52,833 nucleotides of DNA from Candidatus Micrarchaeota archaeon (GTDB lineage: Archaea > Micrarchaeota > Micrarchaeia > Anstonellales > JAHKLY01). The DNA is taken from positions 1 through 52,833 of the forward strand of contig JAHKLY010000005.1 of the NCBI GenBank assembly GCA_020854825.1, in the 5' to 3' direction. Below are positions 36,599 to 37,122 of the stretch, one piece after another (the first letter of the stretch is position 1; each line of letters begins with the position of its first letter). The notes under the pieces are model-generated. The model was given only the letters and a program-made list of their open reading frames with translations. It made no database searches and had not been told where the DNA came from. Both the position numbers and the translations under genes were made by a program.

Positions 36599-36763
36599 AA
36601 AAATGCAGCGACATTTTAATGAAATTAAATGTGTCCTTTTTTGCTAAAACGAAAAATGCGGCGCTATTTGATATAATCAAATGCGCCAATTTTTCATTGA
36701 TAAATGAAAAATGCGGCAACAATTTAACAAAGTTAAATGTGCCCTTTTTACCGAAGGTAAAAA
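36599..36763 (-). repeat. Three double-hairpin units in the tRNA-Gly(GCC) 3' trailer, each repeating the tRNA 3' end
   Basis: GC(C/T)GCATTTTT recurs with the discriminator equivalent at 36712, 36657 and 36604 (periods 52/55/53). Confidence 0.92.
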
Positions 36764-36932
36764 TGCGGCGGCCGGGATTTTCTCCCTGTTGACATGATTC
36801 ACGTCAACCAAAGTTTCGAATTCTCGGACCTACAGGATTTTCCCTAAATTTTCTTTTCTTAAAAGAAAAGAAAGGCCACCCGGGACTCAACGTTGGCAAC
36901 GTCGTATACTAACCAGACTATACTACCACCGC
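36764..36932 (-). tRNA. tRNA-Gly(GCC) with two T-arm introns (53/54: 36821-36878, 58 nt; 59/60: 36778-36814, 37 nt)
   Basis: GCGGTGG/CCGCCGC acceptor; CGACG-TTGCCAA-CGTTG; T-arm rebuilt as CCGGG|TTCGAA|TCCCGG; boundaries may shift by 1 nt. Confidence 0.88.
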
Positions 36933-36955
36933 ATTTATGAATATACTCTTACTAA

Positions 36956-37010
36956 TTTCTTTTTTTTTTGATTAAAATTTTTCTTTCTTTTTTAAAGAAA
37001 GAAAAAGTTT
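36956..37010 (-). repeat. Free-standing TTTC/GAAA hairpin element
   Basis: AAAC-TTTTTCTTTCTTT/AAAGAAAGAAAAA followed by an A-rich tail, distal to the Gly(TCC) trailer array. Confidence 0.65.
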
Positions 37011-37122
37011 AAAATGCGGCGCTATTTGATATAATCAAATGCACCAATTTTTGCCAAAAGGCAAAAAATGCGGCAACAATTTAACAAAGTTAAATGTGCC
37101 CTTTTTACCGAAAAGGTAAAAA
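37011..37122 (-). repeat. Two double-hairpin units in the tRNA-Gly(TCC) 3' trailer
   Basis: GCCGCATTTT at 37069 and 37015 (period 54); near-copies of the two proximal Gly(GCC) units. Confidence 0.92.

Follow-up and report, generated by a model that had tools for sequence, protein, structure and literature searches.

In the IS200/IS605 family, a short guide at the foot of a hairpin pairs with the cleavage or target site. In the mitochondria of chytrid fungi and fission yeasts, double-hairpin elements (DHEs), as far as the available part of their description goes, consist of two adjacent hairpins that are scattered in spacers and sometimes lie inside RNA genes; they are near-identical between species and presumed to be mobile, with no known enzyme (PMC10085805). 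Here we describe a short double-hairpin repeat that stands, singly or in tandem, behind tRNA genes in a 52,833-nucleotide stretch of DNA from a Candidatus Micrarchaeota archaeon (the window; GenBank assembly GCA_020854825.1, contig JAHKLY010000005.1). The ends of the units repeat the 3' end of the tRNA gene upstream, and a double-hairpin repeat family found across the order includes the units as its AT-rich branch. The likeliest reading, which we hold tentatively, is that they form stacks of two-way terminator modules, each a hairpin plus oligo-T, that have spread through local duplication and copying between loci. No earlier description of these units was found in the literature, supplementary files not being covered.

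The genome that holds the window (G000, with the window as its contig C1) measures 828 kb in 7 contigs and is 97.6% complete. Comparison was made with 151 genomes of the order; G001 denotes a congener of G000, and g13 another genus of the same order. The five units reported in the original prediction were all present, on the minus strand and with lengths of 52-55 nt, four of them ending in GCCGCA and the third Gly(GCC) unit in GCTGCA. A further unit, absent from that prediction, was detected behind tRNA-Phe. The tRNA genes of the cluster, identified by hand reading and an acceptor-pairing scan, and their units are as follows:

37454-37595, minus strand: tRNA-Phe(GAA), read by hand, with a T-loop intron; its 3' end CCGTGGCA is followed directly by oligo-T.
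37400-37453, minus strand: the single tRNA-Phe unit, ending GCGTGGCA; E 1.9e-14; -19.8 kcal/mol, fold z -5.3.
37123-37265, minus strand: tRNA-Gly(UCC), with a D-loop intron and the 3' end CAGCCGCA; Rfam tRNA match at 37131-37183, 30.9 bits.
37069-37122, minus strand: Gly(UCC) unit 1, inner hairpin type AAC; fold z -3.8.
37015-37068, minus strand: Gly(UCC) unit 2, inner hairpin type GAT; fold z -6.2.
36764-36932, minus strand: tRNA-Gly(GCC), with one or more introns in the T-arm region and the 3' end CCGCCGCA; weak Rfam tRNA match at 36868-36932.
36712-36763, minus strand: Gly(GCC) unit 1, type AAC, with the same hairpin 2 as Gly(UCC) unit 1; fold z -3.4.
36657-36711, minus strand: Gly(GCC) unit 2, type GAT; fold z -6.4.
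36604-36656, minus strand: Gly(GCC) unit 3, type AAT, degenerate; -4.8 kcal/mol, fold z -0.1.

A search of the 828-kb genome with a nhmmer profile of these six units returned all six at E 6.5e-16 to 1.6e-13; the best other match (E 5.9e-4) was a three-unit array behind a multi-intron tRNA(CAU) gene on another contig (G000:C4:107538-107693). A genome scan combining a regular expression with folding gave 21 rows, of which 15 were overlapping variants of the six known units and the remaining six, from four other places, lacked a double hairpin. Tandem Repeats Finder called the Gly(GCC) array only (period 53, 2.9 copies). No Rfam family covered the units at gathering score, and relaxing the threshold to E 10 over 36500-37750 yielded chance-level matches only. 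All parts of the units are mutually homologous, as opposed to the constant repeats and unique spacers of a CRISPR array, and the arrays contain no open reading frame (ORF). A lone degenerate copy was also observed between convergent protein genes at G000:C5:38433-38490. The hairpin 1 of this copy is almost the same as in Gly(GCC) unit 1 (ACC/GGT core, same loop, T-run longer by one T), and an A/T hairpin comes after the copy.

Each unit begins with hairpin 1, in which runs of T5-7 and A5-7 enclose a core of 3-4 bp and a loop of 3-5 nt, giving a stem of 8-10 bp in total. Hairpin 2 follows after 1-2 nt, with a G+C-rich outer stem of 4-6 bp, an A+T inner stem of 7 bp and a loop of 3-4 nt, and a one-base bulge on its 3' side between the two stems of the 12-bp two-part helix. 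The unit ends with 2-3 unpaired bases (GCA), followed by the oligo-T of the next unit. In all nine units of G000, oligo-T comes directly after an NCA end (GCA in eight, ACA in the unit labelled Met_u2); A4-7 precedes hairpin 2, and T4-7 begins 2-3 nt after it. The double-hairpin fold was obtained at z <= -3.4 in 10 of the 13 units of G000 and G001, the degenerate three being the distal Gly(GCC) unit and two distal units of the CAU array. The complete Gly(GCC) array folded at z -4.3, equalled in none of 200 shuffles. Both hairpins had been predicted to covary, and this held for hairpin 2: over nine units 94.4% of cells were paired, compared with 24-47% in slid controls, 7 of the 12 pairs were altered on both strands, and the covariation score was reached by none of 500 shuffles. 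For hairpin 1 the cores (ACC/GGT, GCC/GGC, CATT/AATG, ATC/GAT and ACT/AGT) were read from the folds, without a formal pair count. Consistent with the prediction, the unit order is shared by the two Gly loci, hairpin 2 being identical in the first units and near-identical in the second, and the distal unit is the most degenerate; the CAU array likewise has its two degenerate units at the distal end.

The repetition of the tRNA 3' end is specific to the tRNA. The tRNA genes end in GCCGCA (Gly), GTGGCA (Phe) and TCGGCA (CAU); the Phe unit has the same GTGGCA end as tRNA-Phe, and the units of the CAU array end in GCGGCA, ACAACA and TCGGCA. Over six loci, 35 of 42 positions matched, compared with a mean of 26.5 in permuted pairings, and at least 35 matches were reached in 4 of 720 permutations, the six loci being treated as independent. 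Similar copies were found in other genera: units directly behind tRNAs ending ...GGCG also end ...GGCG (G117, G064, G101), and the unit behind a CAU-tRNA orthologue in G107 has TGGCA in common with its tRNA. The outermost three pairs of hairpin 2 include copied bases, and their 5' partner follows the copy (GGC/GCC, CAC/GTG, TGA/TCG); by construction, the 5' strand of hairpin 2 could pair with the upstream copy too.

The frame of the original prediction was too narrow, since the units belong to an order-wide repeat family that also occurs away from tRNAs. A covariance model built from nine units (R1) found matches in 12 of the 151 related genomes, and a broader model (R2) in 31 of the 151, distributed over 8 of 45 genera and 4 of 12 families. 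At E <= 0.05, R2 matched all 23 g13 genomes, with 1 to 56 matches per genome counted on both strands; these counts are biased because R2 was partly built from high-count genomes. The G+C-rich consensus reads (CCCTC) T5-GCC-loop-GGC-A5 GGGG CCCC-T5-CGC-loop-GCG-A5-G-N-GGGC-NNN, often with UUCG loops, and is near its own reverse complement, so that many copies match on both strands. A MAFFT alignment of the GC-rich copies was structurally inconsistent and was not used for a model. R2 had no match on 20 Nre-bearing loci of other DPANN genomes.

Of the 27 best-match loci outside the G000 and G001 arrays, 14 were read as tRNA-linked: six lie inside tRNA introns (L006, L009, L011, L028, L029, L045) and eight directly at a tRNA 3' end or no more than about 100 nt from one (L004, L010, L044, L047, L048, L049, L032, L035). 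Rfam confirmed the tRNA in L004, L010, L044, L047 and L048, and L032 and L035 show a tRNA-like upstream end only. Copies within tRNA introns were near-identical in three genomes (G091, G061, G107). In one genome, G031, a tRNA is close to 4 of 19 loci (three by Rfam, the fourth being the hand-read intron copy L006) and the others are ordinary spacers; family members located in ordinary spacers have ends such as GAA, TCA and GCT. Three of the tRNA-linked loci (L044, G117:C80 495-700; L047, G113:C86 1427-1620; L048, G097:C24 about 1400-1650, minus strand) carry a second copy, of about 13-25 nt, of the T-arm/acceptor 3' part, ~100 nt downstream of the intact tRNA and with a double-hairpin module between the copies. 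At L013 (G097:C12, 1-213 and 445-499), a module copy follows the small-subunit (SSU) rRNA gene, ~230 nt beyond its 3' end.

Array length varies between relatives. G000 and G001, respectively, have 1 and 4 units behind tRNA-Phe, 2 and 0 behind Gly(UCC), 3 and 1 behind Gly(GCC), and 3 and 0 behind tRNA(CAU). The Phe - Gly(UCC) - Gly(GCC) cluster is the same in G001, where the single Gly(GCC) unit is accompanied by an extra hairpin 1 and tRNA(CAU) is followed only by a hairpin-1-like stretch ahead of the next gene. Units 3 and 4 of the G001 Phe array are identical, and unit 2 is one compensated hairpin 1 pair away. A pattern scan of metagenomes gave 35 stretches with real units in one, contig L139, whose flanks are near-identical to those of G001 and which has 2 Phe units in place of 4, a difference that short-read collapse could explain. 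The first Phe unit of G001 contains 10 N (L003 about 2390-2400; G001:C62 2923-2932); L139 shows an unmasked hairpin 1 with a different core at this place. In the contigs of three sludge DNA runs the arrays were covered in pieces, those in X1 and X5 showing no differences; no sludge contig spans an array, so these are uninformative on copy number. A groundwater run gave diverged fragments only.

Polarised addition next to the tRNA, as had been proposed, has some support at one locus and not at another. The lone Gly(GCC) unit of G001 is closest to unit 3 of G000 (inner-hairpin identity 0.88, compared with <=0.71 for other G000 units); the proximal Gly(GCC) units of G000 therefore look newer than the distal one. 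The extra Phe units of G001, on the other hand, are distal to those shared with L139. An origin of the units by fold-back (inverted duplication) was rejected, as successive hairpin 1 copies are not reverse complements of one another and the 5' strand of hairpin 2 fits the downstream copy, not the upstream one.

We tentatively favour two-way terminators, stacked, as the explanation of the units. A unit behind a tRNA would re-create the polymerase signal of the tRNA gene itself, namely a G+C-clamped helix ending ...NNNGCA with oligo-T directly behind it. T4 or more stands directly after the discriminator in 16 tRNA candidates of G000, as read from the table of the acceptor-pairing scan, and oligo-T is therefore the normal end of a tRNA gene in this genome. 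In predicted folds, the units have the geometry of a hairpin-plus-oligo-T terminator, a G+C-clamped stem-loop near a T-run, on both strands: because oligo-A precedes hairpin 2, the opposite strand also reads hairpin-then-oligo-T, and the unit looks two-way. An array might then act as a terminator stack that insulates tightly packed tandem or convergent transcription units. Convergent to the Gly(GCC) array, its end 20 nt away, is the following gene:

35391-36584, plus strand: archaeal Nre gene with N- and C-terminal domains (PF04894, 1.3e-83; PF04895, 2.6e-31).

On the plus strand, Gly(GCC) unit 3 reads as a hairpin and then T6, beginning 20 nt past the Nre stop codon. Both three-unit arrays of G000 adjoin convergent genes, with stops 20 and 18 nt away, and the orthologous tRNAs of G001 (Gly(GCC) and CAU), with 1 and 0 units, have co-directional next genes. 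Arrays could grow and shrink by slipped-strand events or unequal recombination at the repeated (X)GCA-oligo-T junction. Heteroduplex correction may transfer the tRNA end, which selection keeps frozen, to the unit, and the 5' strand of hairpin 2 presumably changes in compensation under selection for the helix. Unit types may be copied between neighbouring tRNA loci through ectopic recombination, which, with three loci within 1 kb, would explain the common unit types.

Support for terminators came from outside the tRNA genes as well. An orthologous convergent-gene spacer was compared in 18 g13 genomes, three of them unusable (no anchor, wrong anchor, inserted gene). A G+C hairpin lies across the stop codon, 0-7 nt before T5 or more, in 14 of the 15 usable orthologues, in folds made without shuffle control; in several genomes a complement of the conserved coding end is seen again downstream. 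The module is present in this spacer in G031 alone, after the protein-gene terminator and with CGCCGCA-T6 flanking it on both sides. The regenerated end is therefore a property of the duplicated terminator and not of tRNAs as such. At L110 (G028:C12:15200-16030), an extra ORF of ~200 codons was seen between the conserved genes of the orthologous spacer. The two-sided changes in hairpin 2 and its locus-specific outer pairs speak for selection on the helix, the identical Phe units of G001 and the shorter Phe array of L139 for local duplication, and the lack of matches in G000 to the mobility enzyme families searched also fits this explanation. If two-way terminators are the correct explanation, Micrarchaeota use and multiply bacterial-looking hairpin-plus-oligo-T stops, which bears on archaeal termination in reduced genomes. 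The tRNA-specific copying of a 3' end with a compensating partner strand is an unusual mark of repeat birth.

A number of observations weigh against terminators. In relatives, the module lies inside the six tRNA introns listed above, and an efficient terminator in an intron would destroy the tRNA, so the T5 runs cannot always terminate. Hairpins of the form T5-stem-loop-stem-A5 number 23 in G000, compared with 1-2 in shuffles, and stand mostly in tRNA introns and flanks rather than behind protein genes; being largely confined to tRNA loci, they lend no support to a general terminator role in this genome. A simple promoter/terminator scan called none of the units, its permitted spacer being 0-2 nt, whereas the T-run of the units begins 2-3 nt after a bulged stem. 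The association with neighbour orientation amounts to 2 versus 2 loci only. Units of one array are often not mutual closest relatives, and the inner-hairpin types AAC, GAT and AAT turn up at more than one locus, with outer stems that differ by locus, so that plain local duplication is insufficient. Hairpin-dependent termination is also not a textbook archaeal mechanism; in the usual description, oligo-T alone drives termination in archaea.

A serious rival, which we consider less probable, is that the units are small non-autonomous mobile elements, comparable to MITEs (miniature transposable elements that carry inverted repeats), repetitive extragenic palindromes (REPs) or DHEs, which would insert at the junction of a G+C-rich 3' end and oligo-T. 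They would duplicate a target of 6-12 nt, the 5' strand of hairpin 2 would be guide-like and pair with the target, and arrays would result from repeated insertion beside the tRNA. Consistent with insertion, all arrays of G000 and G001 and six other copies show, at the unit end, a repeat of 6-7 nt from the upstream flank; of these other copies, four are at tRNA 3' ends of other genera (G117, G064, G101, G107) and two are non-tRNA copies in G031 (L054, L060). Copies flanked upstream by CCCTC have no such repeat. The recurrence of inner-hairpin types behind locus-specific outer stems, the near-identical intron copies of three genomes and the newer look of the proximal Gly(GCC) units of G000 also agree with mobility, as do the dispersal of the family and its uneven counts within one genus, which carry the bias through R2 construction. 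The module is a nested palindrome, so its inverted ends, a MITE hallmark, are trivial. Mobility is argued against by the lack of an enzyme among the families searched. A co-occurring gene for a reverse transcriptase, HUH/TnpA or recombinase had been suggested as something to look for, and G000 holds none beyond a 43-aa integrase fragment (PF00589; an open frame on contig C3): there were no matches to Y1_Tnp (PF01797), RVT_1, DEDD_Tnp_IS110 or DDE_Tnp_1, and one weak match to a TnpB-type zinc ribbon was below cut-off. G001 has one Y1_Tnp match and neither DDE_Tnp_1 nor IS110, giving no autonomous partner for a MITE among these families, other transposase families not having been searched. Y1_Tnp was found in 6 of 23 g13 genomes and did not follow module copy number, as a REP/RAYT or IS200/IS605 relationship would have it; G105, G097 and G061 have 24-29 R2 matches and no Y1. 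Around four Y1 genes, R2 detected no module to a distance of about 1.5 kb, its one match having E 0.19, and one consensus pattern of the GC-rich module had no match in viral contigs. A more novel proposal, to which we give little credence, is a tRNA-gene-seeking family of self-contained double-hairpin elements that pairs an internal strand with the last bases of a structured RNA gene, duplicates them on entry and is tolerated as an intron inside tRNA. Its elements would pile up harmlessly beside the tRNA and might be moved by host replication and repair or by an unrecognised enzyme; if real, such a family, with the related T/A-rich hairpin elements described below, would still be supplying DPANN tRNA genes with new introns.

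The original prediction likened each unit end to an acceptor stem with its discriminator base, and saw in it a possible substrate of tRNase Z or the CCA-adding enzyme. By extension, the units could be transcribed and processed by one or both enzymes as tRNA-like minihelices, giving functional small or circular RNAs of ~54 nt, which we regard as very unlikely. Hairpin 2 does stack 5 + 7 = 12 bp, the length of the acceptor/T-arm stack, tRNA ends are copied at unit ends, one G107 unit has a 7-bp outer stem with a single free A, and the frequent UUCG loops of relatives hint that selection acts on the tRNA-matching RNA strand. In G000 and G001, however, only 2-3 of the copied bases pair and 2-3 (GCA or CA) are free, where a discriminator would be one; the loop has 3-4 nt in place of a 7-nt T-loop and lacks a T-loop motif, and the 5' strand is not that of the tRNA. 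The tRNase Z or CCA-enzyme substrate is therefore without structural backing, and the absence of a Rfam match and the non-tRNA ends of members in ordinary spacers point the same way. Still less likely, in our judgement, are intron-like units that a splicing endonuclease of broad specificity would cut from read-through pre-tRNAs, as it does the numerous non-canonical introns of these tRNAs, either copy of the 3' end then being usable. The Micrarchaeota splicing endonuclease does have broad specificity, according to the available part of one report (PMC3239211), relatives carry the module within tRNA introns, and a different hairpin element serves tRNA-Gly(UCC) as its D-loop intron in G000 and as its 3' trailer in G001. 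But the hairpins of a unit are separate, with 1-3-nt linkers, no bulge-helix-bulge, with its two 3-nt bulges on either side of a 4-bp helix, was seen at unit borders on inspection of minimum-free-energy and centroid folds (no dedicated search was made), and oligo-T right after the first tRNA end makes downstream copies unnecessary. The least probable explanation, to which we assign hardly any weight, takes the units as stacked att sites, relics of integrase-borne elements that repeatedly integrated at tRNA 3' ends and were lost. Such ends are classic integration sites, and the three relatives with longer 3' copies and a module between them (L044, L047, L048) would suit it; yet the repeats in G000 measure only 6-9 nt without cargo, the units are uniform, structured and covarying, unlike random deletion remnants, the same flank repeat occurs at a protein-gene terminator, and no integrase is nearby, the fragment being on another contig. 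That the units are not ordinary att sites, as first predicted, thus stands.

The surroundings of the arrays contain further structured elements:

37330-37399, minus strand: 'CTTTC' hairpin element located behind the Phe unit and homologous to what follows the G001 Phe array.
36960-37014, minus strand: T/A-rich 'CTTTC' hairpin element, lying after the Gly(UCC) array and before the promoter region of tRNA-Gly(GCC), of the same family as tRNA introns of G000.
37603-37641, minus strand: 39-nt mini-helix directly upstream of tRNA-Phe; -14 kcal/mol, fold z -4.4.

The CTTTC element follows the pattern TAAC-CTTTTCTTTC...GAAAGAAAAG-CTTAARC-AAAAGAAAGAA, and related copies lie behind the Phe and Gly(UCC) arrays. 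The element that is an intron in one congener and a trailer in the other occupies 37180-37252 (minus strand) in the D-loop intron of G000 and L003 1805-1868 (minus strand; G001:C62) in the trailer of G001. A stretch of the CAU-tRNA intron has matches at 12 further places in G001. The module nested in introns of relatives and the two positions of this element touch on the origin of non-canonical archaeal tRNA introns. The mini-helix combines a copy of the tRNA 5' acceptor strand (GCCGCGG) with a T/A hairpin and with a 3' strand that is acceptor-like and carries an A, with a TATA-like stretch upstream of it and not of tRNA-Phe itself; it may be a structured 5' leader. G001 retains its hairpin and not the acceptor-like clamp.

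All three tRNA genes of the cluster are interrupted by non-canonical introns and have only partial Rfam matches, that of tRNA-Phe (acceptor pairing GCCGCGG/CCGTGGC) covering 37528-37590. ARAGORN reported no tRNA in the window, because of these introns, and made several wrong calls over the whole genome with introns allowed; Rfam gave 20 tRNA matches at E <= 1 over G000, seven of them above cut-off. Non-canonical introns in the D-loop, T-loop and T-arm were observed in the window tRNAs (36764-37595 and 20024-20132, both minus strand) and genome-wide in G000. The window has a G+C content of 23-33% outside a full-length archaeal large-subunit rRNA gene (42436-45411, minus strand), and SSU and 5S rRNA had no matches across its 52.8 kb. 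The nearest named relatives of the Nre protein are from Micrarchaeota/Micrarchaeia metagenome-assembled genomes, with identity of <=53%, which places the source among the DPANN archaea.

Compared with described systems, the units share features with several. In tRNA att sites and disrupted tRNA genes, in the part of the account available (PMC3293823), the 3' part of a tRNA is likewise duplicated beside inserted DNA; there, however, the repeats span tens of bases and accompany kilobases of cargo and a recombinase, whereas here 6-9 nt surround about 46 nt of hairpins. Palindrome-associated transposable elements (PATEs) derived from IS200/IS605 are also small and hairpin-bearing, and their target-pairing guide resembles the pairing of the hairpin 2 5' strand with the copied target, but that family makes no target duplication, G000 has no TnpA, and no module stands at the ends of the four Y1 genes. 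Bacterial REPs and the bacterial interspersed mosaic elements (BIMEs) that they form are short extragenic palindromes, clustered at gene ends in strain-dependent copy number, whose RNA hairpins can end or stabilise transcripts. REPs are, however, mobilised by RAYT (Y1/HUH) and alternate in orientation, whereas the present units run head-to-tail in a genome without Y1, belong to a family that Y1 does not track, and copy at their end the 3' end of the gene upstream. DHEs are likewise small elements of two adjacent hairpins in spacers and some RNA genes, but they are organellar and G+C-rich within an A+T-rich genome, and the available part of their description reports neither tandem arrays nor copied tRNA ends (PMC10085805). 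Bidirectional intrinsic terminators have the same order of oligo-A, G+C-clamped stem-loop and oligo-T and are placed between convergent genes or after RNA genes with high expression, at times as tandem copies; they are a bacterial paradigm, whereas here the 3' strand of the stem repeats the end of the preceding gene and members also lie in introns. By analogy, then, the units would work most like REP/BIME clusters or tandem bidirectional terminators, and in form they resemble the double-hairpin elements of mitochondria.

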